Assembly: GCA_045863295.1 (NCBI GenBank)
Contig: BTWA01000015.1
Span: 61,408-125,407 of the forward strand
Source: Candidatus Hydrogenedentota bacterium
GTDB lineage: Bacteria > Hydrogenedentota > Hydrogenedentia > Hydrogenedentales > SLHB01
Direction: 5' to 3'
Length of the DNA stretch: 64,000 bases
Under the pieces are notes generated by a model, which worked only from the letters and a program-made list of their open reading frames with translations, had not been told where the DNA came from and searched no databases. The stretch's first letter is position 1. Every line of letters starts with the position of its first letter. Positions 12,051-61,412 of this stretch are shown piece by piece. Both the position numbers and the translations under genes were made by a program.

Positions 12051-12127
12051 GGGCGGTTAGCTCAGCTGGTTAGAGTACTTGCTTGACATGCAAGGGGTCG
12101 GAGGTTCGAGTCCTCTACCGCCCACCA
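12051..12127 (+). tRNA. tRNA-Val(GAC); probable prophage integration site
   Basis: Acceptor stem GGGCGGT/ACCGCCC plus ACCA, D-arm AGCTCAGCTGGTTAGAGT, anticodon arm CTTGC-TTGACAT-GCAAG, T-loop GTTCGAGTC. Confidence 0.97.
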
Positions 12128-12141
12128 AGCGTAAGTCATTC

Positions 12142-12188: not shown

Positions 12189-12238
12189 GCGTCGTCCTAT
12201 CGTCGTACCAAAATTCGACCGGCAATGGAGAACCGGTC

Positions 12239-12632: not shown

Positions 12633-13832
12633 TTGGGTGTGGCCTCATTGGAGTGGAAAAAGGACGGGCGGTGCTACATAGTCGTCAAACACAAAGGAAA
12701 ACGCACGTACCACCCTATCCTGGATAAGAACGGAGAAAACCCGTCCAAGGCGCATGCACAGCAGCGACTAAAGGAGTTCATACACAAAGAGAACAGGGTC
12801 TTTATGGGCCTGGACCCAACCCAGAAGTCCATGAGACAAACCATAGCCCAGCTAATTCCGGACTACCTGACGTTCGCGAAGGCCACCTACGTCAAAAACG
12901 GGGTGCCAACGTCGCAGTACGCAAACATCCAGATCGCCATCGATGCACTCAAGGTCACCCACGGCAGACTGCGAATGGTCGAGTTTACGCCGGACCACCT
13001 GCGCGATCTGCAGATACGCAAATGGGCGCATTTATCCCGCCAAACCGTAGTCCACTACACGAACGCCGTGAAGGGGTTTATCAAATGGTGTACGGCTGAA
13101 CGCGGATTAAACCCCGACGTCTTGGCGCGTGTACGGGCGATGGCAACAACCCGCATTGGCCACGCCACCGACCCGATTCAGCCCGTGGACTGGGAACGCC
13201 AGGTGCTACCCATCAAGCCGTATCTATCCCAGGTGCTCTGGGACCTCATCGAAGTGCAGTACCTGACAAACGCTCGCCCTGGGGAGTGGCCACAGGCCCG
13301 GCCGATGGACATTGACACGAAAAAAGGTACAACGGTCAACGGCGTACATGTCTGGACGTTCATACCGCCGTCCCACAAGACACAGCATCGAGGAAAGCCA
13401 CGGGTTATCTTCGTAGGTCCCAAAGCCCAGGCGATTCTCCGGCCGTACCTGGTCCGCGCGAAAGACAAACCGCTGTTCAGTCCACTCGAAGCCATCAAGC
13501 AAAAGCCAGCGCCTAAAGGACACCGGCGCCGGCTGCGCCAGAAGCGGAACGTGTCAGCCACAGACCGTCGCATTGGCGATGCCTACACCACGTCGGCATA
13601 CTCCAAGGCCATCGCCCGCGCCGTGCGAGACTACAACGCCGACCACCAGGATGCCCCCGTCGACCACTGGCACCCAAACCAGTTGCGGCACACCCGCACT
13701 ACGGAAATCAGCGGGAAGCACTCCCAACAGGCCGCTGGCGCCGTCGCCGGCCACGCGCGATCCACGACCACGGACATCTACGACGAGGCTTGGGCGAAGC
13801 TGGCCGCCGAGGTGGCGGCGGAGGAAGGGTAA
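12633..13832 (+). CDS. int: Tyrosine recombinase / phage integrase
   Basis: Catalytic R (TNARPGE), K (HKT), HPNQLRH, AGH, TTDIY; N-terminal arm-binding-like and SAM-like regions. Confidence 0.92.
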   Translation: MGVASLEWKKDGRCYIVVKHKGKRTYHPILDKNGENPSKAHAQQRLKEFIHKENRVFMGLDPTQKSMRQTIAQLIPDYLTFAKATYVKNGVPTSQYANIQIAIDALKVTHGRLRMVEFTPDHLRDLQIRKWAHLSRQTVVHYTNAVKGFIKWCTAERGLNPDVLARVRAMATTRIGHATDPIQPVDWERQVLPIKPYLSQVLWDLIEVQYLTNARPGEWPQARPMDIDTKKGTTVNGVHVWTFIPPSHKTQHRGKPRVIFVGPKAQAILRPYLVRAKDKPLFSPLEAIKQKPAPKGHRRRLRQKRNVSATDRRIGDAYTTSAYSKAIARAVRDYNADHQDAPVDHWHPNQLRHTRTTEISGKHSQQAAGAVAGHARSTTTDIYDEAWAKLAAEVAAEEG

Positions 13833-13910
13833 AAGCGGGCCCCACCACCCCCATTTTTCGAGCCTTGGGGCTCCGAAGCCTTGGCGTCTGTAAGATTATA
13901 TAATTTCTGT

Positions 13911-14362
13911 ACTTACAAAAGCGCCTATGGTTTTTCAAAAGCGGACACAGCGCTGTTGGTCGCAAAATGCCGTCAAAGGCATGACGGTATACTGACGGTA
14001 TAATTTTTTGGCTTTAGTCAAGGAGAAACCCGTGCAGATTCTGCATGGGTTGTGGGTGCATTTTCTGCACCTGTACCCATGCGAATTCTGCTTGGGTCGC
14101 CAAGAATCGGCGTGTACAGGAATATCCCCTCAATATACCGTCAAAATTGTGACGGTATATTTCTCCTTGTCAAGCACGGCGCTTCTGTTAAAAAACCACA
14201 CCGGTAACCACATGAAATTAATTGACTTATGAAAAGCACATAGGCTTTTGAAAAAGCGATACAGCGCTTTTCGTCGCAATATGCCGTCAAAAGCGCGACG
14301 GTGTACTGGCGGTATAGTTTTGGCTTTGGTCAAGGAGAAACCCATGCAAGTTTGGCATGGGT
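13911..14362. repeat. Degenerate direct repeat of about 140 bp (13911-14050 and 14225-14362)
   Basis: Collinear blocks ACTTA..AAAAGC, ACAGCGCT, GTCGCAA.ATGCCGTCAAA, GACGGT.TACTG.CGGTATA, TTTTGGCTTT.GTCAAGGAGAAACCC.TGCA, GCATGGGT in both copies. Confidence 0.9.
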
Positions 14363-14534
14363 ACAGGTGCAGAATCTGCATGGGGTGTCACACCGCCCAG
14401 GGAGGTGGAAGCCCTTTGTAAATACACCGTCATGCCACGTAGAATTTGCTCAATCGTTGCGCAACAATTGCGACGTAAGTAATTGAAAAATAACCACATA
14501 ATATACCGTCACGCATTTGACGGGGTATTGACGG
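13967..14534. promoter_or_regulatory. Array of four CCGTCA-N6-(T/C)GACGG dyad sites
   Basis: 13967-13990, 14132-14161 (perfect 12-6-12 AATATACCGTCA/TGACGGTATATT), 14281-14304 and 14500-14523; each has a third, partly degenerate half-site 11 bp away. Confidence 0.8.
14063..14374. repeat. Perfect 20-bp inverted repeat (14063-14082 / 14355-14374)
   Basis: TTCTGCACCTGTACCCATGC and its reverse complement GCATGGGTACAGGTGCAGAA. Confidence 0.9.
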
Positions 14535-14813
14535 GGGAATTTCTTGCCTGTAAGCCGTTGAAACCACTTGACGTTGAATACAGTCCAATCAACTGGTAGT
14601 GGTTAATACTGCCACCCAAGATATTGCGTTCAGTTAACGTTAACCACTAAATCATTGAAATTAAATCACTTGCGCAACAAGTACACATAGTGTAATGTAC
14701 AATATAGATATGAGCGCAAGACTCGACCAAGCTGTTTATGGTCGAATTCGCTTTCAAAGGTGGTTTGTGTCTTAGTATTTGGGCCACCACTTTAGCTACG
14801 AGGATTGATTAAC

Positions 14814-15056
14814 ATGAGCAATTTCGTGTCAACTCCGAATGAACTGAGGTTCAAGAAGGAAGTGGAGCGCGCTTTGTGGGATGCATACGATGCCGGACAA
14901 GCATCGTTGATGTCGGATGTGCATTTCGATAAATCTGATTCTAAATCCGTAGCCACGCCATTTGAAGGAATTGGAAAATACTGGGTAGCTGTTGGAAATG
15001 TCATTAGAAAAGCGACGACCTCGTTCAAAGCGAGTCAGCAGTCGAGCGAAAAGTAA
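14814..15056 (+). CDS. Small hypothetical protein (moron gene 1)
   Basis: GAGGA RBS before ATG 14814, AT-rich, overlaps the following DUF2335 ORF. Confidence 0.55.
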   Translation: MSNFVSTPNELRFKKEVERALWDAYDAGQASLMSDVHFDKSDSKSVATPFEGIGKYWVAVGNVIRKATTSFKASQQSSEK

Positions 15057-15573
15057 ATCTACTCTCAAAACATCTTCTCTTAAGACTCAGGTCCCTGAAG
15101 TCGTAGAAGGTGAGGTGAGGCGTGTGCCTAACCTAGCCAGGCCATTTGGAATAATTACTGCAACTCAAACTGAGATTTCGGGCCCAATACCAGATCCGAA
15201 AGTGCTTGCTGAATACGGTAAAGTTGATAGTTCGTTTCCTGAACGAATAATGCAAATGGCTGAGCGTGAGCAACGATTCGACCACGATCAATATAGGTTC
15301 TTGGCTAGTGGATTGGTTCGCAGTATACATATTGGCCAAGGCATGATCGGATTCATATGCTTAACTGGTCTGATTTGCGGCACCTTGGTAATTATTTATG
15401 CAGATTCGGCGTTGGTCGGCACATTAATCAATGTATTGGCATTTATAGTGCCTGGAGTTTCTCAGTGGCTTCGGGAACGAAGCCGAAAGGAACCTGCGGC
15501 TGATAAGCGTTTAAAGCAAGATGCATCAAAGAATAATGAATCTCAACCTGATGTAGGAAAAGAAGGCAGCTAA
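14992..15573 (+). CDS. DUF2335-family membrane protein (moron gene 2)
   Basis: SGPIPDPKVLAEY...PERIMQMAEREQ followed by two TM helices. Confidence 0.8.
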   Translation: MEMSLEKRRPRSKRVSSRAKSKSTLKTSSLKTQVPEVVEGEVRRVPNLARPFGIITATQTEISGPIPDPKVLAEYGKVDSSFPERIMQMAEREQRFDHDQYRFLASGLVRSIHIGQGMIGFICLTGLICGTLVIIYADSALVGTLINVLAFIVPGVSQWLRERSRKEPAADKRLKQDASKNNESQPDVGKEGS

Positions 15574-15829: not shown

Positions 15830-18800
15830 CTATTTTGCCCAGGCCGGTCTGAAGTTGAAATCCGGCATCTTCTGTGGGACGTCTTGGTCGCGCGTCTTTT
15901 CGCTTCTGGGCGCTTCTTCCATGTTGTTTATCCAACGTCGGACCGTGTCCCCCGTAATGAACGGTACAAGTCCTTTCCGGTACTGTTGCGCATTGATTTG
16001 AGCGTTCACTGTCCGGATATCCTCCTGGATATCCTCCCACGATTCAGGCGGGTTGTCGCGCTTCAATGAGTACCGTTTCACGCGATCGCGGATACGGTCC
16101 TTTATGCCCGTCCCGTCTTGGTTGGAATAAAGCCTCTGGATCGTGCCTTCGTCCCAGAGAATCTCACGCTTCTCGGAAATCTCGGCCGGGTTGAATCCAG
16201 CCGACCGGAGCAAGGTCGCATACAACGAAGGTTGAATCTGTTCCTTTCCAAAGAACACTGGCGACCCGTTCCCCTTGGTGACCCCGTACATGTACTCTCG
16301 GTATGCCTTGAAAAGGTTGCTCGTGGCGCGTGGCCCGGCAAGCTCAGCGGCCATGGCAATATCGCCTCCGGCCGCTTTCTTTAACCCGGAAGAGACATCA
16401 CCGACAGCTGCCATTGGAGCGCCGGCCAGTTCAAATACATTACCGGAGATCGCCGGCGTAAATCCGAGCGTTCCGCGCGCGTCGATGTTCAGTAGCCCGA
16501 GCGCGCCCGTGCGCACGACCCGCTCCGCTCGAACTCCAAACTTATTGGCTATCCACTCGTACAATGCGTAGTACGGTTCGTCGGGCGGCTCCCCTCCAAA
16601 TGCGCGAAATGCCGCTCGAATAATTGGCTTCAGGATCATAGACGCGGCTCCGGCCACCACGCCACCTTCCAACCCAGCCACCATTATTGGAGCCACTGAC
16701 AACCACAGAAGCGACGGCCAATCTCTTTTCTTAAGCGTGTGACCCAACAACTGTATGTGGTTTAACATGAACCCTTGAAATAAATAGGCGTTGCGCAAAA
16801 CCTGCGGCGCTACACCGCCGCCACGCATCAGGTACGGCAGATTCTCCTTTCCGAACCGCGAATGGATCTTGTCGCTTATGTTCCGGGCCTCACGAAATGC
16901 TTCATCTTTCTCCAATCCCTTCTTCCGGAGAATCTTGTATGTGGCCATGATAGTGGCGCCGCGGTTCAGTTGTTCCGCTTTGGAGAAGGGAAACATAATC
17001 GTGTTGGTGGCCATGGTGTACCCGCGGCCAAGCGCGTTTACGTTACGGGTCATCTCTTGCGCGTAATCGTCATTGTCCCACCTGCGCCGTCGGATCTCAT
17101 CCAATATCTCACGGTCCTCTTCCGTAGCGGTACCTAACGTCCAATAGGCGGTGTACGCATTTGCGGCTTTGGCAGTGAGCATGCCCGCTGCCACAATGTT
17201 GGTATCCGTAAGCGTGGCGATCCCGGGTGGCACAACCAATGCCAATGCAGAAAGGTTGTATGCGGCGGAAGACGGACTGGAAAGCATCTTGTACGAGGTC
17301 AAACCCCGCAACACGCCCATAATACGTTCCAATTCCTCTTCATTTCGCAGCACCTCATGCAACAAGCTCATGGCTTCTTCGTATGCCAGCGGTTGTTTGG
17401 CGCTGCTTAATCGGCGTTCACGCACCTGGCGCCGGTATTCGCGGTAGAGTTGCAACCGTTCGTCGGCCTTCTCTTCCCTATCCATCTCGTCAAAGCCATC
17501 CGGCTTGTTTCGCTGAAAATACTGCTCCAAGGATTCTGTTGTTCCCATCACGACGTTCATGGCATCGCGTCGCATGATGGCCCGAGCGGATCCGGATGCG
17601 GCCGCCGCCGCCGTGCTCACTACCGCCCTGTACGCGTCTTCGTCATACCCAAGGTACACAGCCTTACCTTTGGCATCGTTCCGTCCAATCTTGCGAGAGC
17701 GGGATCCACGGCTGTGCAACACGTCGGCCAGTCCTTGTGCCACCCCTTGGGTGTACAAGCTCACAAACGCACTATTCACGGAATGGTGGGAAAACCGGGA
17801 CAGGATATCTCCCTGCAGTCCCCTATTGGGCCGTTCGAAATGCCACACACCCGGATCGTTTTCAGTCAGTCCAAGCTCGGCCCGAGTCGAGTCAGACTCC
17901 TTTCCGTACCGGTGCCCGCCGAACTCCATCATGATCCGATCATTCGCCGGCGTCTTCGGCGCGACAATCACCAGGTGGCGCTCGCTCTTTCCGTCCTTCC
18001 GCTTGTACTTGACGACCTGTGCACGCATGCCAAGGCTTTCGAAACTGGCCTCGTCGTTGGTGGATTCGCGGACCCGGTCTATGGCTGTCTCGAACACCTC
18101 GTTCAGATTAGCGATGTCTAACTCGCCAAATACCTTTTCTGATGGCTTGTTTGTTAACCGGTTTTCCGTCTCATACCCGCGCGCATGCAATACCGCCTTG
18201 CCAACGGCCCGGCCAATCTTCGTATCGTAATGCTGCCGGCGTGGGTTTTCACCCTCCTTTTCAGCGAACAAATGGTATCGTCCGTCTTTTCGTATTCGCG
18301 GCATGTAGTGCCCGCGACGGTCCCCCATCCGCTTAAGCGCCTCACGCAACGTCAGTATTTCACGGCTGCCGTCGTCGTTATAGATAGATGTCGTACCCTC
18401 CGGCTCCCCATTTTGCCGGCGCAACTCTTCCGCGACCATGACATCATTGGCGAAGATGTTGTATACGTTCCCGTTCATGCGGCGAACCGCCAACAACGCC
18501 CTGGCCGCGCGTTTCGAATGACCAGCCGCCTTATAATCGTGCGATTCTCTCACCCAGGCATTGTCCCAAGCCTCTTGCTCATTACTAAACCGGGCCAGTT
18601 CCCGCCGTTTGCCGTTCTCGTCCGGCATGGAAAGCACAACGTACTTGCCGTCTTCGTCTTTTACCAAGTACCCTTCGCCATTTCGGTCCCGTTCAAATAA
18701 GTACTGGTTTAGAGCCTTGTACTCCTTCCGGATGCGCGACCAAGCTGCATTCGGTGCCTTGACATCACTGGGTGTCACCATGGCGATCGCGCGCAGATGG

Positions 18801-21800
18801 GACAGTTCCCCGTCCGGCCCAAGTCCCCCTGTCACAAATTCCACCAGGTCCACAGCGTTGTCACGCATCCGATCGATGATGCCCCAAAGCTCCTTCAACT
18901 GCGGTACCTTCTCAGCATTCCAGAGGGGCGTGCCGGCAATCTGGCTGATAAGCCCGAGCTCCGGCCGACCGTCTGTATCGCTAAAAGCGGCGCGGATGGC
19001 GGCAGCAAGTTCCTTCGCCTTCCCGAATACTTTCCAGGCCCAGGCCTTAGAAGAGTCCGCCTGTTCCTGTTGCTTCGCGGTCATGGCGGGCCCGTAGACC
19101 ACCGAGAACATCGGCCCTTGCGCGTCCGGCCCTTCCGTGGTATCATCTTTTTGGAATCCCGTCCGCTGAGAGTCCGGAATCATTGAGGCGGAGGGCGTCG
19201 CGCTGGGGTTCTCCGGAGTCCGCCCAGTGGCATTCCTTTCCCGCTCCACCCTCATATTCCACTGCAGTTCGTTATCATCCAAGGGAAAATCGGCATCAAC
19301 GTCTCGTAACCTATTCCCAACCGAGAACATCGGCCCTTGCGGATCTCCGCTTTCCGTGGTATCATTTTCTTGGAATGGCGCTTGCCGAGATCCCGGAATC
19401 GTTGAGGCAGGTGTCGCCGGGTTGGGGTTCTCCGGGGTTCGCCCAATGCCGTTTCTCTCCCACTGAATTCGAAAGTTTCCCTGTTTACCGGGTCCCTTGG
19501 TTCCATAAGGGAATTGCGTTATCAATCGTCCTCCCGGTATGCCCTGATCTACCACCTGCCCGTCCTTGCTGACGACAACCATATGCTTCGTATTGTCGTT
19601 GTACTCCCGCACATAGATGTCGTTGCCAGATTCTGGATCCCGCAATACTGCCGCTGCATTTTGAAGTGTATTAGGCACATTTGGAAGCCACTTGGCTTTG
19701 GATAGATCGAGTGACTTCTTTGAGTTATCCCAAATGAGATGCTTGACACGCTTCGCCAAAGAGCCTTCCTCTGTATTGTGAAGCAACACTGCAGTGCCAT
19801 CGGCGGCGGAAATCGTCTCCGGCCAAGACATGAACTCACGCCCGGCTCGTTCGATAACCTTCGCAGGAACCCCGGTAATGTCCAGACTTCTAGGCTTTAC
19901 GTCGTCCACCGGGAAATCCTTCGTATCCCGAAGTCGGTCCCCAACCGAGAAAGCCGCGCCTATGCCCTTCATCCCCGGCTTTCGGGCAAACAGCCTGCCA
20001 TTCCGGAATTCCAGTTCCGCATTGATGCCGGCCACGATCGCGCCGTTACCGCGCAACCGCGCAAACAGCCGGCGGAAAAGCATCTGGATACGCCTCAGAA
20101 TTCCCGGCCGCGTTTGAAGCGCTTTCGCAATCCTCTCTTCCTGTTGCTTGTGATATTCGGCGATTTCCTCTTTGGTTGCGGTATCGCCTGGGACCGGAAT
20201 GTCCCCTGCGTACTTCCCAGCCAACGCAGACCACTCGGCATCCGTGAATAAACCCAGAGCGCGCGCCCAATGTAACAATTCATGCCGCAATGTGTCGGTC
20301 GGTAACTGGCCCGCTTCGTTCGCAATTAATATTAGATCGGCCGCGTCAATCCGGTTACCCTGACCATCCTCTAATTCCACAGCCTTAAAGTAACCGGCAA
20401 TACCCATTTCCCGAAGTTCGGCGTCCGACTTGTCTTTTAACTCATGGTTGGTCTTCCGAATTTTGTTCAGGTAACTCGGCGTCGGGTAGATCATGTCGAC
20501 GACGCGCAGTAAAAGCGTGGACCCGTTCTTGGCGGTTATCTCAAACTCCCCATCCACTTCGCGTACCGTAGCGCCTGGAAGCGCCCGCAGTATGTCTTCC
20601 TGGGTCAGTTGTCCGGAAGGCGCTGTGCGCAAATCCCCGCGGTAAGCAGCATCCATTCTTGCCACGGAGAACATATCCGGCTGTCCGCCCTTTTCCGGTT
20701 TCGGTCCACGATCAGCCTTGGAATCATCGAATAATGCCGTCTGCTCCTGCCCCTCCAATTCATCCAGGAGCGCGTCCACTTCCTCTGTGGGCCGTTCAGT
20801 GCGCTTCAAGACATCACGCTGCGCGCGAACCTTCTCTGCGGCCTTGGACTTGCTCCCATACAGACGTATTGCATCCTGGGCGTCCTGGGAAAGCGTTGTA
20901 GCCGGTTCCGGTACAACTTCCTGGAGTTCTTTGTCCTGCCGTGGCTTTGCGTCCGCAGTCCTGGATCCCGGCTTCGGCGCTGACGTTTTTGCCGCTTTCT
21001 GTTCGCTTTTCGCGTCAGGTTTATTGGCTGCGGCTTTAGCCTCGTTTACTTTAACCCGGTCGGCCTCTTGTTGCTGGTATTCCTCTAACGCATACGGATA
21101 CAGATCCGATGAAGTCTTGACGATCTCGACTCCTTCAAAGCCCTGGCCATCGTCCAAGCTGATTCGTTCGCCATCAAGCAATTCAGTACCGCCCCACGGC
21201 TCTTCATCGGCCCGGTACCATTCACCGTTCCTGTAAACCAAGTCGCCAGTAGCCAACTCATCTTCGGTCAACAACTGGGGATCGGAGAGTTTTAGAGACG
21301 CAATCTCCTGCTTAGCCCGCTCTTCGGCCGTCTTTTGCGGTTGTCGGCTGTCATACTCCTGGTAGGATTTCTCAATCTCCTTGTCAGTGGCTTCACGCGC
21401 TCGTCCGAGAAACAACCTGCGCAACTCAGAGGGATCCGCATCCGTTCGCAACAATCCCATCTCCGCCGCTTCCTGAATCGCCTCGTCCCATGTGTACATC
21501 CCGTCTTTACGGATCACTCCGGGCGGAAAACCAAAGTTGCGGGCCTCGGGCGCGCCGAAATCGTCCGCCGTCAAGTCTGTAGGCGGTTTTAAGCCGGCAT
21601 CCCGGATCGTATTGCGAAATTCCTGCAAAGGTGTGGCCGCGCTTGGACGCTTTCGTCCTCTTGACCGTCCGATTGCTTCAACCAGTTCCGCTTGAAGGTC
21701 GGCAATCCGTTGTACCACGGCCTGGTGCGCCTCGGACGCTTTACTACCCTGTGCCTTGGCGAGCTTACGCGCGCGTTTTCTGGCGGACTTCAACTCTTCA

Positions 21801-24800
21801 CGGATGGCTTTCTTAGATCGTGGCTTTGCTTTCACTCCAACTTTGGCCGCTTTAGTGTCATCTGTAACCGGCTTTTCGCTTTCAACTTGCGCTACCTCTG
21901 GCGCTTTTGATGACACGGATTGTGTCTCAACTCCGGCACTTGGAAACTCTTTGACCATAGGCAAGATTTTCGCAATCGGCTTATTGAACCGGATAACGCG
22001 CAATCGAGATTTCCCGTCTTTGATGGCGGCGGCCCATTGGTGATGACCGTCGATCACGTAGTTGTCCGAGGACACGAGGATAGCCCGATCCCCATCATTG
22101 AACTTTTGTGCAGCCCGCACCTTAGCCGGCGAATACTCGGCCTGGGTCGCCTTCAGTTCGTCCGGCGCCACTTCCACGGATTCATGTTCGACGTCGCGCG
22201 CACCAAGAAACTGAGTCAAAGCCCCTCGATGCTCGGCCTTTACCTGTGGCATGTCTTTTCGCGAGACATTCAGCGGCTTGAACATCTGAGGGAACGGCCG
22301 CCACCCCACTCCACCAACTTTAAGCTCCGATCCTCCAATAGCCTTGCCGGTCGGTTTTTCGGTACCGGGTTTGGTCGTCACAGCGCCAAGCGCCGCGTCT
22401 ATACGAGCCATGGCGGCGCGGCGGCGGTCATTCAGCTTCCTATTCTCCGCCGCCTTCGCCTCCGCCTGTTCCAGAGTGACCTGTGGAGACGCTTTCTTGA
22501 TGTCCTCCGCTGTCTCCGGCGTCTCGCGAATCCCTTCCTCTAACCGTCCCCGCATCGAACGTGCGCCTGTCGGAGTCAAGCGATCCCTGTCAGTCCGCTT
22601 CGCACGCGCCTCCGCCGCCAACGCCATGCCCTCCGGCGTTGCGGATGCCTGATACTCCCAATTCCTCAACTCCGGCCCAGTTAAACCGGCCGCTTCATTC
22701 GCACTCATCGACATCGGATCGAGTCGCGTGGAATCCTCCCCGGTCACGCCGGCGGCGCTCGGTTGGGCAGTCGCCTCGTAGGAAGGCGCATTAACCGATT
22801 GTGGCGCCGCCGGTGCAACCTCGGGAGTCCTCATTGAAAGCGCTTGCGCAGGCTCCTCGGGCGTGGTGTTGGGCGTTACCGCTTCCGGCCCTTGGACTTG
22901 CCCTTGCATTTCTTCATCGAAACCACCTCCTTGTAGTTGGTTAGACGAGGTATCCTGTCCCCCGCTTGTGAGTACATTTGCTACTATATGAGCGGTTTGT
23001 GGTGCGTTTGTGGGTACAATCCCGGGCGTGATTTTGCCACGGGCGGTCCGTACCGCTTCCTGGAGACGTTTCTTGGCTCCCTTGCCACGATACTGCTTGT
23101 CGCCCGCATCGATCCCCAGTTCCGCCCGCATGTCGCCCATGCTCATGACGTCTATATCGGGCAGTTCCCCTTCGTCGACGGCATCGTCGCGGTACGAGTA
23201 TTCGAATTCTCCGATCGGCTCTTCGTCCGTGGCTGGCGCGGCGGGATGTACCGTTCCGTCCAACAGGTCCACGGCCGCGAACTCTTTCGATGGATCGGGT
23301 TCTGCTATGGCTCCGAATACGGCCTTGGCCGCATCATCGCTCACCGCCTGATCGAATAGCGTATACAGCGTATCGGCGCGTTCATCGGGTTTCATGCCGA
23401 TCACTTGGTCACGAGGCATGCCAAAGGCTTGAAGACCCCTGATAATTGGCCTGTGACGCCGTACATTCTGGGCCAGGAAGACAGCGGGCGAGTATGGAGT
23501 GTCGGACCCCTTGGCCAACATCATACCAAGTGCAAGGTCCGGAGCCGCTTGTCCGAATTCCCACACTTGTTCGGGAATATCGGCTCGTTGCAGACGATCA
23601 TGAAGGTCGCGGCGTAATCGGGCATCCTGTGCCGCTTTGAATAGCGGGCTCGCCGCATACGAACCGCCTCGAAACAGCGCCGTACCCAACACCACTTCTG
23701 GAAGCGAGTCCACCCAACCTTGCAAGGCCGGTTTTAGATTGGACCAAGATACGCTCTCGTAATCATTATTGAGGTTAAGTAGACCCTCAAGAATCTGTTG
23801 CGAGCTTTCCTCAACCAGCGCTTCAGTTGCCACATCGTGGACACCAACGGCCCGTGTAAACTTCTTGGTCGCATTTCCAAGCGCAACGGCGTTGTCCGGA
23901 ACCTTCAGCTTACTCATCGCTTTCCGGATTTGAGATGGCATCACCCTGGCCGCGCCTTGTTTCACAAGGTTCTCCGCAGCCTCGCCCGCACCAACAAACC
24001 CAAGCTTTCGCGCTGCACCCCTGCCAAGCTTGCCGAGCCCGCCACCCACCAGGTCGCCAAGAAAAGTCTCGATTGTAAAAGCAAGTACGGCACCAGTTAT
24101 CGCTTTTGGAGCTGCCTCGTACCATGGAGCCGCTTCTTGCCGCAACACCATATTGCCATTCGAGTCGATCGTGGCGTCGTCACTTCTAAGTTCGTAATAG
24201 CGGGTCAATGTTTCTGGCAGAACAAACCCGACGCCAAGCGTGCGTTTTCCGAGCGCTATACCGCCTGCATATCCAATCATTTCGTCCGCGGTATTGCCGG
24301 CCATACCCAATACCGTAGAACCCCGCTCATTTCGTTCCTGTCCAGCGCGTATCGAAATAGCGGCACGTTCCTGGGCAACCTCATACAATCGCCGCTCCAA
24401 TGCTTGCCGGGTTTCCGGTGTGCGTTCTTTCGTAAAGGCCCTATAGACCTCGTCTTCTGTGTCTCCAGAGATATGATGAAAGGCGGATTTCAAGTCACCA
24501 TCGTCCAATTCGCGGATGTTCTGAAAGCCCGTTTCTTGGTTGCCTAGATGCTTGGCCTGTGCGACCGTCCTGCGCGACAACCCAAAAGGTTCGTATCGCG
24601 CAAATGTCTTACCAACGATCCCCGTGTTGGATTCCTTTAACCCAGTCGCCGCCTCGATCGACGCTTGTCGAGTTTCTGTGAAACCCATTTTTCCCTTCGG
24701 TTTGCCTTCCGGGGGTTCGAATTCGGGCTTAATTGGACGGAAGGCGCCTTCACCAGCCTTTCGCTGACTAAGCGGAATGTAGTCTGGTGCGGCTGAAACG

Positions 24801-25078
24801 AGCTTGTAACTGTCCAATTCCGGATCGTCTGCAGACACAAGACTGAATCGTTTTTCGGGTGTTGTCGACGCTTCAACAGGCCGAATTCCGCTTCGGTTAC
24901 GAGTAACGTACCGTGGATCGGCTGTCGCAAGGTTTTGCTTTCTTAAATCAGGATCGTCAGCTGAAATAAGAGAGAAGCGCGGACTATTCGCCGAGGTCGT
25001 CATATTATTGGGCGCACGAAGTATACTTGTATCGTCATCAGCAACTTCGTCAGCCGGGATAAGTGTAATCGGACTCAT
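15830..25078 (-). CDS. Giant phage polyvalent / internal virion (ejected) protein, 3082 aa
   Basis: Last gene of the virion module. ParB/Srx-like domain (ILVSSDNYVIDGHHQW), zincin-like HELLH motif, probable PBECR-type nuclease-fold domain, YMPRIRKDGRY (PLxRFG-like), hydrophobic C-terminal region. Confidence 0.85.
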   Translation of the reverse strand: MSPITLIPADEVADDDTSILRAPNNMTTSANSPRFSLISADDPDLRKQNLATADPRYVTRNRSGIRPVEASTTPEKRFSLVSADDPELDSYKLVSAAPDYIPLSQRKAGEGAFRPIKPEFEPPEGKPKGKMGFTETRQASIEAATGLKESNTGIVGKTFARYEPFGLSRRTVAQAKHLGNQETGFQNIRELDDGDLKSAFHHISGDTEDEVYRAFTKERTPETRQALERRLYEVAQERAAISIRAGQERNERGSTVLGMAGNTADEMIGYAGGIALGKRTLGVGFVLPETLTRYYELRSDDATIDSNGNMVLRQEAAPWYEAAPKAITGAVLAFTIETFLGDLVGGGLGKLGRGAARKLGFVGAGEAAENLVKQGAARVMPSQIRKAMSKLKVPDNAVALGNATKKFTRAVGVHDVATEALVEESSQQILEGLLNLNNDYESVSWSNLKPALQGWVDSLPEVVLGTALFRGGSYAASPLFKAAQDARLRRDLHDRLQRADIPEQVWEFGQAAPDLALGMMLAKGSDTPYSPAVFLAQNVRRHRPIIRGLQAFGMPRDQVIGMKPDERADTLYTLFDQAVSDDAAKAVFGAIAEPDPSKEFAAVDLLDGTVHPAAPATDEEPIGEFEYSYRDDAVDEGELPDIDVMSMGDMRAELGIDAGDKQYRGKGAKKRLQEAVRTARGKITPGIVPTNAPQTAHIVANVLTSGGQDTSSNQLQGGGFDEEMQGQVQGPEAVTPNTTPEEPAQALSMRTPEVAPAAPQSVNAPSYEATAQPSAAGVTGEDSTRLDPMSMSANEAAGLTGPELRNWEYQASATPEGMALAAEARAKRTDRDRLTPTGARSMRGRLEEGIRETPETAEDIKKASPQVTLEQAEAKAAENRKLNDRRRAAMARIDAALGAVTTKPGTEKPTGKAIGGSELKVGGVGWRPFPQMFKPLNVSRKDMPQVKAEHRGALTQFLGARDVEHESVEVAPDELKATQAEYSPAKVRAAQKFNDGDRAILVSSDNYVIDGHHQWAAAIKDGKSRLRVIRFNKPIAKILPMVKEFPSAGVETQSVSSKAPEVAQVESEKPVTDDTKAAKVGVKAKPRSKKAIREELKSARKRARKLAKAQGSKASEAHQAVVQRIADLQAELVEAIGRSRGRKRPSAATPLQEFRNTIRDAGLKPPTDLTADDFGAPEARNFGFPPGVIRKDGMYTWDEAIQEAAEMGLLRTDADPSELRRLFLGRAREATDKEIEKSYQEYDSRQPQKTAEERAKQEIASLKLSDPQLLTEDELATGDLVYRNGEWYRADEEPWGGTELLDGERISLDDGQGFEGVEIVKTSSDLYPYALEEYQQQEADRVKVNEAKAAANKPDAKSEQKAAKTSAPKPGSRTADAKPRQDKELQEVVPEPATTLSQDAQDAIRLYGSKSKAAEKVRAQRDVLKRTERPTEEVDALLDELEGQEQTALFDDSKADRGPKPEKGGQPDMFSVARMDAAYRGDLRTAPSGQLTQEDILRALPGATVREVDGEFEITAKNGSTLLLRVVDMIYPTPSYLNKIRKTNHELKDKSDAELREMGIAGYFKAVELEDGQGNRIDAADLILIANEAGQLPTDTLRHELLHWARALGLFTDAEWSALAGKYAGDIPVPGDTATKEEIAEYHKQQEERIAKALQTRPGILRRIQMLFRRLFARLRGNGAIVAGINAELEFRNGRLFARKPGMKGIGAAFSVGDRLRDTKDFPVDDVKPRSLDITGVPAKVIERAGREFMSWPETISAADGTAVLLHNTEEGSLAKRVKHLIWDNSKKSLDLSKAKWLPNVPNTLQNAAAVLRDPESGNDIYVREYNDNTKHMVVVSKDGQVVDQGIPGGRLITQFPYGTKGPGKQGNFRIQWERNGIGRTPENPNPATPASTIPGSRQAPFQENDTTESGDPQGPMFSVGNRLRDVDADFPLDDNELQWNMRVERERNATGRTPENPSATPSASMIPDSQRTGFQKDDTTEGPDAQGPMFSVVYGPAMTAKQQEQADSSKAWAWKVFGKAKELAAAIRAAFSDTDGRPELGLISQIAGTPLWNAEKVPQLKELWGIIDRMRDNAVDLVEFVTGGLGPDGELSHLRAIAMVTPSDVKAPNAAWSRIRKEYKALNQYLFERDRNGEGYLVKDEDGKYVVLSMPDENGKRRELARFSNEQEAWDNAWVRESHDYKAAGHSKRAARALLAVRRMNGNVYNIFANDVMVAEELRRQNGEPEGTTSIYNDDGSREILTLREALKRMGDRRGHYMPRIRKDGRYHLFAEKEGENPRRQHYDTKIGRAVGKAVLHARGYETENRLTNKPSEKVFGELDIANLNEVFETAIDRVRESTNDEASFESLGMRAQVVKYKRKDGKSERHLVIVAPKTPANDRIMMEFGGHRYGKESDSTRAELGLTENDPGVWHFERPNRGLQGDILSRFSHHSVNSAFVSLYTQGVAQGLADVLHSRGSRSRKIGRNDAKGKAVYLGYDEDAYRAVVSTAAAAASGSARAIMRRDAMNVVMGTTESLEQYFQRNKPDGFDEMDREEKADERLQLYREYRRQVRERRLSSAKQPLAYEEAMSLLHEVLRNEEELERIMGVLRGLTSYKMLSSPSSAAYNLSALALVVPPGIATLTDTNIVAAGMLTAKAANAYTAYWTLGTATEEDREILDEIRRRRWDNDDYAQEMTRNVNALGRGYTMATNTIMFPFSKAEQLNRGATIMATYKILRKKGLEKDEAFREARNISDKIHSRFGKENLPYLMRGGGVAPQVLRNAYLFQGFMLNHIQLLGHTLKKRDWPSLLWLSVAPIMVAGLEGGVVAGAASMILKPIIRAAFRAFGGEPPDEPYYALYEWIANKFGVRAERVVRTGALGLLNIDARGTLGFTPAISGNVFELAGAPMAAVGDVSSGLKKAAGGDIAMAAELAGPRATSNLFKAYREYMYGVTKGNGSPVFFGKEQIQPSLYATLLRSAGFNPAEISEKREILWDEGTIQRLYSNQDGTGIKDRIRDRVKRYSLKRDNPPESWEDIQEDIRTVNAQINAQQYRKGLVPFITGDTVRRWINNMEEAPRSEKTRDQDVPQKMPDFNFRPAWAK
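19101..19460 (-). repeat. In-frame internal duplication of about 140 bp in the polyvalent gene (period 219 bp)
   Basis: ACCGAGAACATCGGCCCTTGCG identical at 19101 and 19320; GRTPENP...FQ..DTTE....QGPMFSV occurs twice in the protein. Confidence 0.9.
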
Positions 25079-49629: not shown

Positions 49630-49902
49630 TCAGGCGGAATCGCCGGGCACCCACAGCTTGGGTTTATCAACGCCCATCCCTTTGCTGAGCATTTCAATAA
49701 ACTCCAGGAGCGCTTCCCGATTCACAATTGCCGCCGACACATGACGGCCGTCCAATGGGTGTTTACCTTCCACGGTACCTTCCACTTGCACGTCGAACAG
49801 CTTGCCTTCACAGAAGATAAACAGACGGGGATCGTTCTCTACTGCGTCAGGAGTCCGTGCCTCGTCCAGGTCCACAACATTGTCTGGTAATTCCTCACTC
49901 AT
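49630..49902 (-). CDS. Hypothetical protein
   Basis: ATGA coupling to the TerS-like gene. Confidence 0.55.
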   Translation of the reverse strand: MSEELPDNVVDLDEARTPDAVENDPRLFIFCEGKLFDVQVEGTVEGKHPLDGRHVSAAIVNREALLEFIEMLSKGMGVDKPKLWVPGDSA

Positions 49903-50426
49903 GCCTGCAGCTCCTTGATTTCATCTTCGGTCATCCGGACCGAATTCAGTTCCAATACCTGTTCCTGGCCGGCCGTAGCCAATACCTCCGGAGGTAAATT
50001 CAGGTTCAGGATGTTCATGTTCTCCACGGCGTATTGATTACTGACCCTTTCCCGGTACTTCTCCGGCTTGCGAGACTTGAGCATAATAACCATCAACGTG
50101 TCCGAGTACTCCTGGATGTGACCCATCAGTTCCCCGCCCTGCCACACCGGCTTCTTCACACCGTACACAGCCCGGCGGTAAGCCTCCTCCTCCAAAAGTT
50201 CCGTGCTAATCGCGTAGGCCTCGTCCCAGGCCTTTGCGAATGCAGGATCGGACTCTCGATGGTTGTATACCGTGCCGCGCGAGATACCCACCTTCAACAC
50301 CGCCTTGTGACACGACCAGCCCGCTGCAATCAGCTTCAGAAACTTGTCTTTCTTCACTGCAGTGAAATGACGAACATCCCGCTTCGCGGGTTTCTTCGCG
50401 CGCGCGCGTTTGGCTGGTTTATCCAT
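49899..50426 (-). CDS. Terminase small subunit-like HTH protein
   Basis: VGISRGTVYNHRESDPAFAKAWDEA, EAYRRAVYG, YSDTLM...KPEKYRE. Confidence 0.8.
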   Translation of the reverse strand: MDKPAKRARAKKPAKRDVRHFTAVKKDKFLKLIAAGWSCHKAVLKVGISRGTVYNHRESDPAFAKAWDEAYAISTELLEEEAYRRAVYGVKKPVWQGGELMGHIQEYSDTLMVIMLKSRKPEKYRERVSNQYAVENMNILNLNLPPEVLATAGQEQVLELNSVRMTEDEIKELQA

Positions 50427-51403: not shown

Positions 51404-52438
51404 TCACCCCTCCTTCGGTGTATATGGCACGACGTTGTTCACAATTTCGCTGACAGCAGTGGGTTGCGCTGGATCCCGCTTCGACGCCTCACGCGCCCTG
51501 GCCCGCTGTTCCGCTTCCTCAGCCAACCATCGCGCCGCGGCAATCTTCGCCTGCAGCTTCGAGAGCGGCGGCCGCCCTTTACGGTCATCGATATCACGCT
51601 TGACCCAGTTGAGCAGGAACGCCTTCATGCCCTTCGGTGTCTTACGACGCTGGTCTTTCGCCAACACCCACAGACGCGCCTCCTTGCACGAGTGGAAGAT
51701 GTCAACGTGAGCCCCGTACGTTCGCCAGAGTTCGTCCAGGAAGGATTTCCGCAACTCCCACGTCTTACCGCCGACACACGGGAACGTCATGTACACCTGG
51801 TCCTCGGGTGGGGAAGGTTTGAATTCGGATTCATTCGACGAAAAATCGGTTGGCGGCGGCGTGGAGTCGGGAACCGGCTCCGCGCCTTCTTCCTCCTGTT
51901 CCTGTTCCTGTTCCTGTTCCTGTTCCTGGTTAGGCATACGGTTTGCCATACCGTTACCTGAACCGTTTGGGTAACCGTTTCGAGACGGTTTAGGTAACTG
52001 TTCCCCGGTGAGTGTGGTGAATTCCTTGTAACGGGCTACGTTGATAGACTTTAGCGACTCCGCCACTGTTTGAATATGCTCGGCGAGCAGGGAGCATTCC
52101 GGTAGTGTTTTGATTGTTGCCGCCATACTTTTGACGACGTTCGTGTTGTCTGGCGGATTGTGCTTTACAAACCGTGGAAGGGTGACCAAAAAAGCGGTTT
52201 CGTCAACCCTCGCCATACCGTTTCGAAACAGTTCGGCAAACCGTTCCCTAAACCGTTCCGGAACCCATCCAATCTCGGCCGCAAGGCCAGGTATGGAGTG
52301 ACGCATCGCGCCGACCATCGTCATGTTTGGATGGGTGAGTAGAAATAGGAATACCAGCTTGGCATCATCGGACAGGGAACAGAATCGCCGATCATTCCAA
52401 ACCTGGACAGACACCTTTCTGTATCGCACTTCGCTCAT
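51404..52438 (-). CDS. Phage replication initiator (lambda O-like organisation)
   Basis: YRKVSVQVWND..F..LS..AKLVFLFLLT winged-helix N-terminus, iteron-encoded linker, EQEQEQ tract, RRKT..GM..FL.NW C-terminal domain. Confidence 0.8.
   Translation of the reverse strand: MSEVRYRKVSVQVWNDRRFCSLSDDAKLVFLFLLTHPNMTMVGAMRHSIPGLAAEIGWVPERFRERFAELFRNGMARVDETAFLVTLPRFVKHNPPDNTNVVKSMAATIKTLPECSLLAEHIQTVAESLKSINVARYKEFTTLTGEQLPKPSRNGYPNGSGNGMANRMPNQEQEQEQEQEQEEEGAEPVPDSTPPPTDFSSNESEFKPSPPEDQVYMTFPCVGGKTWELRKSFLDELWRTYGAHVDIFHSCKEARLWVLAKDQRRKTPKGMKAFLLNWVKRDIDDRKGRPPLSKLQAKIAAARWLAEEAEQRARAREASKRDPAQPTAVSEIVNNVVPYTPKEG
51894..51928. repeat. (TCCTGT)n microsatellite encoding QEQEQE
   Basis: Five perfect 6-bp units plus one near-perfect unit. 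Confidence 0.9.
51938..52268. repeat. Putative origin iterons, two clusters with about 12-bp period
   Basis: ACCGTT-like cores at 51938, 51950, 51962, 51974, 51985, 51997 and 52217, 52228, 52240, 52252. Confidence 0.65.
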
Positions 52439-52451
52439 AGCTTCCCCGTCC

Positions 52452-52916
52452 TTAGTAAAGACCCAACTGTAACGGCGGTTCACCGTTACTCTCGTATGAT
52501 TGCTTTATGGCAGGCAGGGCCATTTCCGCGACCGTCTGGCCGTTGGGCATCATGATGTGCGGCATGAACGCCTGTTCGAACGTCTCCACGCGTGAATCAA
52601 TCGCATGAATCTTCGCCTTAATACAGAGAAAGAGGCAGCGCCACCGCTCCCTGCACCCCTGTTCCCACTCTTTGTACGCGGCTTCATTCGAGCGCCGCCT
52701 CGCGCCGTTGTGTGAGTGCGTGAACCGTGTGGAGTTTGGGTCCGGCATGGCGATTCGGAAAATGATGTTGTAGCCCTTGAGCCGGAACGCGATACTTGCG
52801 CGGGCTTTCTCCATGCCCGTGTAGATGGATTCCGCGCCATTCTGCATGAGAAGCCGTTCAATCTCGGCCTTACTGCGTTCGATTGGAACATTCGTATCTT
52901 TGGCGTACTGACTCAT
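52452..52916 (-). CDS. Conserved-looking phage hypothetical protein
   Basis: YAKDTNVPIERSKAEIE...RERWR.L...IKAK...FEQAFMPHI. Confidence 0.7.
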   Translation of the reverse strand: MSQYAKDTNVPIERSKAEIERLLMQNGAESIYTGMEKARASIAFRLKGYNIIFRIAMPDPNSTRFTHSHNGARRRSNEAAYKEWEQGCRERWRCLFLCIKAKIHAIDSRVETFEQAFMPHIMMPNGQTVAEMALPAIKQSYESNGEPPLQLGLY

Positions 52917-58421: not shown

Positions 58422-59296
58422 GCCGCTGACTCCCGGGATTCCTCCGGGAACCCTTTCAGAACGCCGTCCGCGCGTTGGAACGCCTGCATGATGTCGTTCC
58501 ACTTGCCGTGGAATCCGCACGTGGTGCCGTTATCCTCGAACCCAAACGCGGCAATCAGGTCAGCCAACGCGCCTCGCAACCGATCCCGCTCGTTTCGAAG
58601 GTCGCCCACGTTGCCAATCGCCTTGTTATAGGCAGCATGGGTCTTCGTGCTGGCCACGGCCGCATCCAAGTCGCGTAGGAACTCGGCATTGACAATGGAA
58701 CGTCTGCGATCGCTTAGATCGTGTTTCTCGCCAGCCATCACCTTGGCCATGCGCTCACGAATGACGGCCAACCCTATGATTAACTCGCCGAACATCACTT
58801 CCACGGTCCGGAGACGCTCCAGCTCGCGGTCTGTCTGGTCCATTGAATCGTCAAAATGGTTATACGTGTCCAGTGCTGCCTGAGATTCTTCGATTGCTTC
58901 CTGTAACGACTTAATCGTTCGAATCGCCCAGGTACCGCCCTGGCCATCATAAGGTTCGAATTCGCGAAAGTGCTCTTTCAGGTAGTTGAGCATTTCCTGA
59001 TATGCGGCTTCGCGCGGCGTTCCGACAGGTAGGTCACAAGCAGGGTAATTAGTTTGAAGTGACTTAATGAGTCCTTCCTTAGCTTGCCCCAATGATTCCT
59101 CAAGCGAGTCAACTTTGGCATTCGCCTTATGGAGCGCGGTCTCCACAGCGCTCAATTGGTTGTCCATCCAGGTCTTGGTAAAAAGCTTGCGCGCGTGCCT
59201 GGCCTCGTCCGTGGCCTTTTGTAGAGCCACGTCCCGGTCCGTTCCGAGACTCAGGTAGTGCGCGTAACGGTGAATGATGAACTCGCGCCTGGTCAT
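58418..59296 (-). CDS. Hypothetical coiled-coil protein
   Basis: ATGA coupling to the ParB gene. Confidence 0.6.
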   Translation of the reverse strand: MTRREFIIHRYAHYLSLGTDRDVALQKATDEARHARKLFTKTWMDNQLSAVETALHKANAKVDSLEESLGQAKEGLIKSLQTNYPACDLPVGTPREAAYQEMLNYLKEHFREFEPYDGQGGTWAIRTIKSLQEAIEESQAALDTYNHFDDSMDQTDRELERLRTVEVMFGELIIGLAVIRERMAKVMAGEKHDLSDRRRSIVNAEFLRDLDAAVASTKTHAAYNKAIGNVGDLRNERDRLRGALADLIAAFGFEDNGTTCGFHGKWNDIMQAFQRADGVLKGFPEESRESAA

Positions 59297-61209: not shown

Positions 61210-61412
61210 AGTCCCCTCTTCTTGCATTCGTTGCAGGTATCGGCTTCCAATGGGTCGAAGTGACCCGTGTTCTTCCGCTTCCGGCAGACCGTGCACATCT
61301 TCAGCGGCCGTCCGCCAAACCGCTCCATACAGGTGCGGCATACAGTGCCCGAGGCGAACTCCGCCTTGGGCTTCACTACTCCGCAACCGTCGCACAACGA
61401 TTCGCGTTCCAT
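61206..61412 (-). CDS. 68-aa double zinc-finger protein
   Basis: Four CxxC motifs; AAGGAG RBS. Confidence 0.65.
   Translation of the reverse strand: MERESLCDGCGVVKPKAEFASGTVCRTCMERFGGRPLKMCTVCRKRKNTGHFDPLEADTCNECKKRGL

Follow-up and report, generated by a model that had tools for sequence, protein, structure and literature searches.

What is the role of some 850 bp of non-coding, motif-rich DNA that lies beside the integrase of a prophage? We addressed this question for one locus in a window of 64,000 nucleotides on contig C15 of a 6.3-Mb Candidatus Hydrogenedentota genome (G000); positions without a contig name are those of the window. An earlier note, made from the letters of the window, had described 13860..14700 as a mosaic of interleaved motif modules and had proposed recombination sites, an operator or decoy array, a phage centromere or a packaging site. 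The mosaic is real, and all of the listed motifs were recovered at or near the positions first reported.

The prophage that carries the array is about 60.8 kb long and is integrated in tRNA-Val(gac), with one copy of a 49-bp att core at 12080-12128 (attL) and the second beyond the window at C15:134253-134301 (attR). Its gene set is that of a temperate tailed phage and comprises portal, major head protein, terminase, a DnaD-like initiator, a ParB-like protein and a giant protein of 3082 amino acids. The array lies between the 3' end of the integrase gene (13832) and two moron-like genes, which converge on the giant gene (Table 1). A related prophage with the same gene order in a Verrucomicrobia genome (L367) carries four tRNA genes (tRNA-Met, -Arg, -Pro and -Ser; L367:10321-10980) and one ORF between the giant gene and int, which marks this slot as accessory. 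The host genome encodes three HU/IHF-family proteins and contains two CRISPR arrays (G000:C24:79736-81105 and C27:38740-41360). Three of 66 extracted spacers match the prophage with 2-4 mismatches (at C15:74049, the start of int, and at C15:121721 and C15:127950), so related phages have attacked this host lineage. A second host prophage (G000:C29:42778-82266) has an integrase and an immunity region of its own, differs in its head and tail genes, and reaches the contig end; as a candidate partner of the array it was rejected, since the 11-mers common to both are scattered and at chance level.

We re-examined the composition of the array. It is an AT-richer block, as the earlier note had it, with a GC content of 44.9% compared with 56.4% for the prophage. 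The CCGTCA-N6-TGACGG dyad (A) is perfect at 13970, 14138 and 14506 and has a near copy at 14284; the perfect form is absent from the rest of the genome. The G motif, GTCAAGGAGAAA, occurs forward at 14017 and 14329, its sole two copies in the genome, with an 11/12 reversed copy at 14160-14171. Dyads of the TGC-N7-GCA type (B) are exact at 14033, 14057, 14345 and 14368, with a near copy at 14080, and TTGCGCAACAA is found twice (14457 and 14670). Of IHF-like sites, four were present, each one mismatch from WATCAANNNNTTR (14476, 14551, 14587 and 14648) and none perfect, and as 9 of 300 shuffled sequences reached that count, the class is enriched only modestly. Dyads as a whole were far more abundant than expected: 22 with five-bp arms were counted, whereas 200 shuffled sequences averaged 4.25 and none exceeded 10, and among 31,366 genome windows of 800 bp the array ranked top for dyad density (21 compared with a mean of 4.8).

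Four features had been overlooked in the first reading. There is a direct repeat of 134 bp at 81% identity (13917-14050 and 14232-14362), an imperfect palindrome (~13925-14200) centred on three B boxes, and an 11-bp phasing of the CCGTCA half-sites; the fourth feature is the pair of matches to an island on another contig, described below. Each of two units runs in the order double IHF-like site, AAAAGC boxes, A dyad with a half-site 11 bp on, G motif and B boxes. Between copies, dyad arms are more alike than spacers (0.96 and 0.61 for A, 0.86 and 0.62 for B), a measure that is partly circular.

Table 1. Features of the array and of the prophage around it (positions in the window).
Feature	Position	Strand	Remarks
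tRNA-Val(gac), integration target	12051..12127	+	attL core 12080-12128
Direct repeats common to the attL and attR ends, TCGTCGTACCA-type; putative Int arm sites	12190..12210	+	Absent from the array
Tyrosine integrase (int)	12633..13832	+	Family common in island-like elements of the phylum
Control block copy 1, partial	13889..13942	.	TGTAAG...CTTACA double IHF-like site and AAAAGC boxes; homologous to C8:74192-74246
A module 1: CCGTCA-N6-TGACGG and a further half-site 11 bp on	13970..13998	.	No partner found elsewhere
G motif GTCAAGGAGAAA	14017..14028	+	Reads as RBS ahead of GTG 14032 (candidate 66-codon ORF)
B boxes 1-3, CCCRTGC-N7-GCA type, 24 and 23 bp apart	14029..14096	.	Match in-gene repeats of island rep
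A module 2, mirror copy: degenerate half-site and near-perfect 30-bp palindrome	14127..14161	.	Closes the ~13925-14200 palindrome
Control block copy 2, full	14159..14257	.	Reversed G motif, degenerate B half-box, double IHF-like site, AAAAGC/GCTTTT dyads
A module 3: dyad with one change and half-site	14284..14312	.	
G motif copy 2, then B boxes 4 and 5	14329..14384	.	B4-B5 is an inverted B2-B3, 83% over 41 bp
Lone A half-site, TTGCGCAA dyad (14451-14470), IHF-like site (14476-14488)	14427..14488	.	No partner found
A module 4: dyad and half-site; IHF-like site 14551-14563	14506..14563	.	
Right end: TAACCAC repeats, two IHF-like sites, second TTGCGCAACAA	14587..14710	+	
Two moron-like genes: 83-aa ORF without family match and DUF2335 membrane protein	14805..15573	+	
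3082-aa giant protein, end of virion operon	15830..25078	-	Bounds the accessory slot, with int on the other side
Terminase small subunit (TerS)	49899..50426	-	41% identity to island TerS
DnaD-like initiator of the prophage itself	51404..52483	-	Internal repeats AACGGT

The array does not resemble an RNA gene or a CRISPR locus. An Rfam search of the window returned the tRNA as its sole match, with no structured RNA in the array, and the RNA fold z-score of -5.8 reflects the inverted repeats and is no evidence for an RNA. A test for CRISPR-like arrays found no regular repeat-spacer period. The left flank of module A (13960-13977) agrees with the repeat of the host type II CRISPR array (C24) in 13 of 15 bases; this likeness is short, post hoc and probably due to chance, and we did not use it. 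The right end (14587..14710) is, from its position, likely to be the promoter region of the two downstream genes; a promoter scan found no site within it.

Its position beside the integrase suggested a substrate for recombination. Direct and inverted copies do imply past rearrangement, and the IHF-like sites would suit such a substrate. The earlier note's proposal that the tyrosine recombinase reshuffles these sites was nevertheless not supported. The 49-bp core matches attL and attR only, and at one mismatch neither the TCGTCGTACCA-type putative arm repeats nor TCGTCGTAC or CGTACCA could be found in the array. None of 29 related integrase loci, several of them truncated, has an array downstream. 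An independently assembled contig of sequencing run X1, which possibly is the source sample, spans the array with no differing letter and no internal joint; assembled contigs can drop rare variants. A centromere for the ParB-like protein of the phage is the related proposal. P1 parS has two box types around an IHF site; the array contains several box types and IHF-like sites, but two of its box classes match another element. Its A boxes are phased at 11 bp. Adjacent parAB genes are lacking: the ParB-like gene (59293-61395) is ~45 kb away, and no ParA was found among the 31 + 39 window ORFs scanned. Both proposals leave unexplained the two matches to an island on another contig, and we consider a role of the array in integrase recombination or phage partition very improbable.

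The two matches converge on contig C8. The best non-self BLAST match of the array (E 0.42) falls within an ORF of 287 amino acids, the rep-like gene of an island. A matrix built from only the five array B boxes ranked sites in this gene first, second and fourth among all non-self sites of the 6.3-Mb genome, and when scored as clusters the island reached 72.7 bits and the array 73.0, compared with 36.7 for the next locus. The converse search started from the three repeats of the island, and the top non-self matches of their matrix were four array boxes; array B boxes and the repeats inside island rep are thus reciprocal best matches in this genome. An unbiased scan agreed, as 7 of ~280 array 15-mers have a three-copy cluster at the island repeats; four others hit four unrelated sites, and the most repetitive two of these are a CRISPR array and a coding repeat.

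B-type repeats behave as iterons. Among 57 viral loci with tandem B boxes, seven look by eye like repeats of initiator genes, and five of the six ORFs tested match replication-initiator families. Because B-type dyads are common as initiator repeats, the B match alone could be convergent. In a comparison of 12 repeat sets only three matched the array, namely those of the island, of its closest Rep homologue (39% identity, which has the closest repeats) and of one more; the other nine ranked 343 or worse. In genome G096, B repeats track Rep relatedness. The island repeats are followed by a tract of 70% AT, so that the island has both parts of a lambda-O-type origin, putative iterons in the predicted initiator gene and an AT-rich tract. 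The array has no such gene, its B clusters are flanked by sequence of 44-62% AT, and its B spacing differs from that of the island. Its five B boxes are several initiator repeats away from an origin, as in a titration locus such as P1 incA, the identity of the initiator being predicted. Titration loci serve the initiator of their own replicon, and the array falls outside that class because it matches a foreign initiator: repeats of the prophage's own initiator rank 1385 at best against the array, and as its source these AACGGT repeats were rejected for their poor match.

The second match concerns the control block. Its full copy (14159-14257) aligns with C8:74143-74246 at 67 of 99 bases, ~40 bp upstream of the island gene for an AlpA-like helix-turn-helix (HTH) protein and thus ahead of the alpA-rep-terS genes. 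The alignment scored 53, whereas 150 shuffles reached 39 at most and 250 genome windows of matched AT content 40. When a profile was made of both array units, its two best matches beyond the array were the repeats in island rep (E 0.019) and the control block of the island (E 0.22); these lie ~0.9 kb apart on the island, and for 4 of 16 unbiased array tiles the best match was in this ~1-kb zone. With E values of 0.02-1.1, against 0.25 and 1.2 reached by shuffled tiles, the single matches are individually weak, and their strength comes from convergence on one island zone: the rough chance of two independent modules falling this close is 3.5e-4. We judge that the array sites very probably either have a common ancestry with those of the island or mimic them.

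The island is 54.8 kb long, and a tRNA-Val(tac) end is present in copies at its two boundaries. The core comprises int, terS, the rep-like ORF (C8:72902-73765), the alpA-like gene (C8:73756-74100; 114 amino acids, with HTH_17/DUF1580 matches below cut-off) and a protein of 417 amino acids with a predicted winged-helix end (C8:74619-75872), and its cargo includes the HmaA and HmaC defence genes. These are the components of a phage-inducible chromosomal island (PICI), an integrase at a tRNA att site, alpA/xis, rep-ori and an optional terS, rep being predicted. Island and prophage TerS are 41% identical, and among 135 genomes of the phylum this TerS family was found only in these two elements. 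We infer from the common family that the two form a helper-satellite pair, in which the island would use its own TerS with the TerL and capsid of the phage. In run X1 the contig depth is 11.8 for the prophage and 12 for the island, on separate contigs of one assembled genome; equal depth fits one cell and does not prove it. Ten bases at 14390-14399 are identical to the 3' end of the island's tRNA-Val(tac) att core, a marginal likeness.

The 287-residue ORF is predicted to be a lambda-O-like initiator with the internal repeats as its iterons. Its Atlas neighbours are Phage_rep_O and HTH_36, with a score of 0.93 in which 131 of 256 features are common. Searches of Pfam, PHROG and PDB returned no match and a word search no homologue, and a single-sequence fold gave no usable model (pLDDT 40.8). 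About 10 of 13 homologues have, by eye, a repeat type of their own just after the N-terminal part. Islands of the phylum (L443-L455) encode a family of small initiator-like proteins that has no family name and, in the four tested, no Pfam match; most of the genes have an element-specific dyad repeat inside or directly after them, and the family is a natural set for the study of protein-DNA specificity. One member (L453, G000:C9:130721-131488) is solitary and surrounded by housekeeping genes; repeats could not be seen, nor is there an integrase close by, and it is possibly domesticated. The tRNA-Val(tac) site of the island also has, in tandem, a 5-kb element with its own integrase (L009, G000:C8:65481-70495); the Rep of this element, also a homologue, has ATCGGCGCA-type repeats that do not match the array.

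Why would a phage carry such sites? We favour, tentatively and at somewhat less than even confidence, the reading that the array is a non-coding anti-satellite decoy, which would titrate the island Rep and a regulator once the phage multiplies. Phage replication would raise the array to many copies, and its five B boxes and two control blocks would then outnumber the single island origin. The B boxes would bind island Rep and not fire, with no AT-rich tract adjacent and a spacing unlike that of the island; clusters that lack the 70%-AT tract are what is expected of sites that bind and do not fire. The control blocks would likewise capture the regulator of the island alpA-rep-terS genes, so that the satellite would be induced and replicated less and the phage would be protected. 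As to the CCGTCA boxes, they may be aimed at another element or may, with IHF, organise the complex. If the control-block binder is a repressor, titration could induce the island instead of blocking it. Of the readings offered by the earlier note, a decoy array is the best supported, with one change: the target is likely the co-resident satellite-like island and not the phage's own repressor, as the matrix of the prophage immunity region matched the array poorly, with a best rank of 133 near the moron genes. That site, 14688-14704, has a weak likeness to the immunity-region repeats and lies beside the likely moron promoter, through which the prophage repressor might control the DUF2335 genes.

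The same matches to the island could mean that the phage exploits or senses it, with the array acting as an additional origin at which island Rep starts replication, or as a switch by which island Rep or the regulator changes transcription of the moron genes or of an antisense RNA into int. In favour of this account, the array contains IHF-like sites and 30-mers rich in AT (83% AT at 13891 and 14476), there is a leftward sigma-70-like site (10/12, 14173-14146), there are RBS-like motifs ahead of short ORFs at 14032 and 14344, and two genes lie directly downstream. Against it, the B clusters are not beside an AT-rich tract and are spaced unlike those of the island, the phage already encodes an initiator with different repeats, and promoter-like sites are no commoner than in shuffled sequences (3 compared with 1.8 +/- 1.4). 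The ordered palindromic layout exceeds the needs of a sponge and speaks for this account, which we rate as unlikely overall.

Gene order raises another possibility, as int, B repeats and control block follow one another in both array and island, and islands of this kind commonly carry integrases of the family to which that of the prophage belongs. The int end of the prophage could have been captured from an island relative, the coding parts lost, and the cis sites left and duplicated with little present function. Several observations argue against such a remnant. The prophage contains no homologue or coding remnant of the island Rep, the AlpA-like protein or the 417-residue regulator, and the two integrases are just 31-34% identical. 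The sites have been multiplied and rearranged, not eroded, and the greater likeness of arms than of spacers, partly circular as noted above, also counts against a remnant. We regard a functionless remnant as improbable.

For the control block, the direction of copying may be the reverse. It could consist of the phage's own sites, bound by a phage activator or forming a TerS packaging signal around IHF like lambda cosB, which the island copied to sense or use its helper. Consistent with this are the TerS family common to both elements and the dyad-IHF-dyad symmetry of the block, and there are precedents, as PICIs copy helper cos sites and are helper-induced (PMC6092414) and the SGI1 island mimics the parS of its helper (PMC10954446). 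Eight of 57 viral loci, all marine phage contigs (L213, L223, L234, L242 and L261-L264), have by eye non-coding B-like arrays of CCATGCA-N5-TGCAT with GGGCGGGCCCACCC directly upstream of terL, which was confirmed in five of five tested, and this region is a candidate packaging or origin region. These loci lend a packaging role some plausibility, although the earlier note's proposal of a packaging site is weakened overall: terS lies ~35 kb from the array, and boxes of this type are present in two further genomes that yielded no member of this TerS family. None was found in G096 either, where B repeats follow Rep. The B repeats lie inside the coding sequence of island rep, profiles of the array units found no further copy of the control block in the prophage, and other islands of the family have, by eye, element-specific repeats at the same upstream position. 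These points make a phage origin of the control block quite improbable in our view.

We searched widely for a second array. The earlier note had looked to conservation of the motifs in related phages, and here the outcome was negative, with no second array in the relatives or collections searched. A DNA search of the 135 phylum genomes gave one chance coding match, the A-dyad pattern was present in this genome only, and phage and plasmid collections held no match. Pattern scans of viral sequences returned no locus in one case and one coding match in another; in a third, 80 of 82 loci were read and were mostly chance coding matches, with no second array. Of 19 further loci some fell in rep-like genes or other repeat arrays and none had the same mosaic, and in 12 others no other array module was present. 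A metagenome scan with the G motif yielded 119 stretches, largely an RBS with a start codon, which makes this pattern ill suited as a probe. The giant protein has relatives of only 24-36% identity, many of them with another gene order; they led to 40 viral loci that were scored, six dyad- or repeat-rich windows that were read, and three genome and four viral loci read further, all without an array. Two patterns composed after both elements had been seen gave 2 and 3 exact matches in the 135 genomes, all in this one, and so are evidence of rarity only.

No partner was found for the four A modules, which are the most conspicuous motif of the array, or for its right third. None for the A boxes was seen in the host genome or in 42 island-like loci, scanned with a matrix in which one of 13 half-sites was misaligned by a base, or with patterns over the 135 phylum genomes. 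By eye, the inverted, 11-bp phased A layout resembles the region upstream of rep in island L443, which is a lead only. A likeness by eye between the TTGCGCAA dyad and the repeats of L447 was rejected, as its genome rank is only 7828. We suggest, with more reserve than for the decoy itself, that temperate helpers can fight satellites by protein-free decoys, built from satellite origin repeats and an operator block and amplified by phage replication; the CCGTCA modules would then be decoys for a second satellite, and the array a modular record of past parasites.

How does the array compare with known systems? The C8 island is like Gram-negative PICIs such as EcCICFT073 in having int, an AlpA/Xis-like HTH protein, rep with repeats, a terS homologue, defence accessories and a tRNA site; it is unlike EcCICFT073-type islands in its length of 55 kb, its lambda-O-type in-gene repeats and the absence of a pri-rep origin, and it is known here from sequence (PMC6092414). 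In these PICIs AlpA is a self-activating, helper-induced activator required for induction (PMC6092414). A satellite Rep is known to bind origin repeats in non-coding DNA (PMC7145576). Surplus initiator sites, as in the ori2-inc iterons of Vibrio and datA of Escherichia coli, inhibit replication by titration or handcuffing (PMC6090056). The array likewise has extra initiator-binding repeats away from a firing origin, with binding predicted, but those loci act on the initiator of their own replicon, whereas the array matches the initiator and control block of a foreign element (PMC6090056).

Counter-defence against satellites is known from phage ICP1, which uses Odn, CRISPR-Cas and Adi against PLE satellites (PMC9638900). 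There, as proposed here, an accessory locus of the helper acts against a satellite with the satellite origin as target; ICP1 is a lytic phage that employs proteins and nucleases, in contrast to non-coding DNA in a temperate phage (PMC9638900). The helper defences described in the papers cited here are proteins (nucleases, CRISPR-Cas and Adi), and binding-site mimicry there runs from parasite to helper. Our literature search, which covered titles and abstract openings and left most subscription papers outside its scope, found no phage-borne non-coding decoy against a satellite. The array, known from one genome, is real and specific, and it is probably a variant of DNA mimicry between mobile elements that is new. 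If so, matching of non-coding prophage arrays to the in-gene repeats of co-resident islands would be a general search rule, and would pair helpers with satellites in uncultured hosts.

A close parallel is SGI1, in which parS-like repeats mimic the centromeres of IncC helper plasmids (PMC10954446). In both cases one mobile element has copies of the protein-binding DNA of another, and the effect of SGI1 grows with copy number (PMC10954446). The direction differs: in SGI1 the parasite mimics the partition site of its helper, whereas here the helper has the origin repeats and control block of the parasite, with an effect that is predicted only (PMC10954446). If our reading is true, a helper that carries the origin and control DNA of its satellite would be the mirror case, a protein-free counter-defence.
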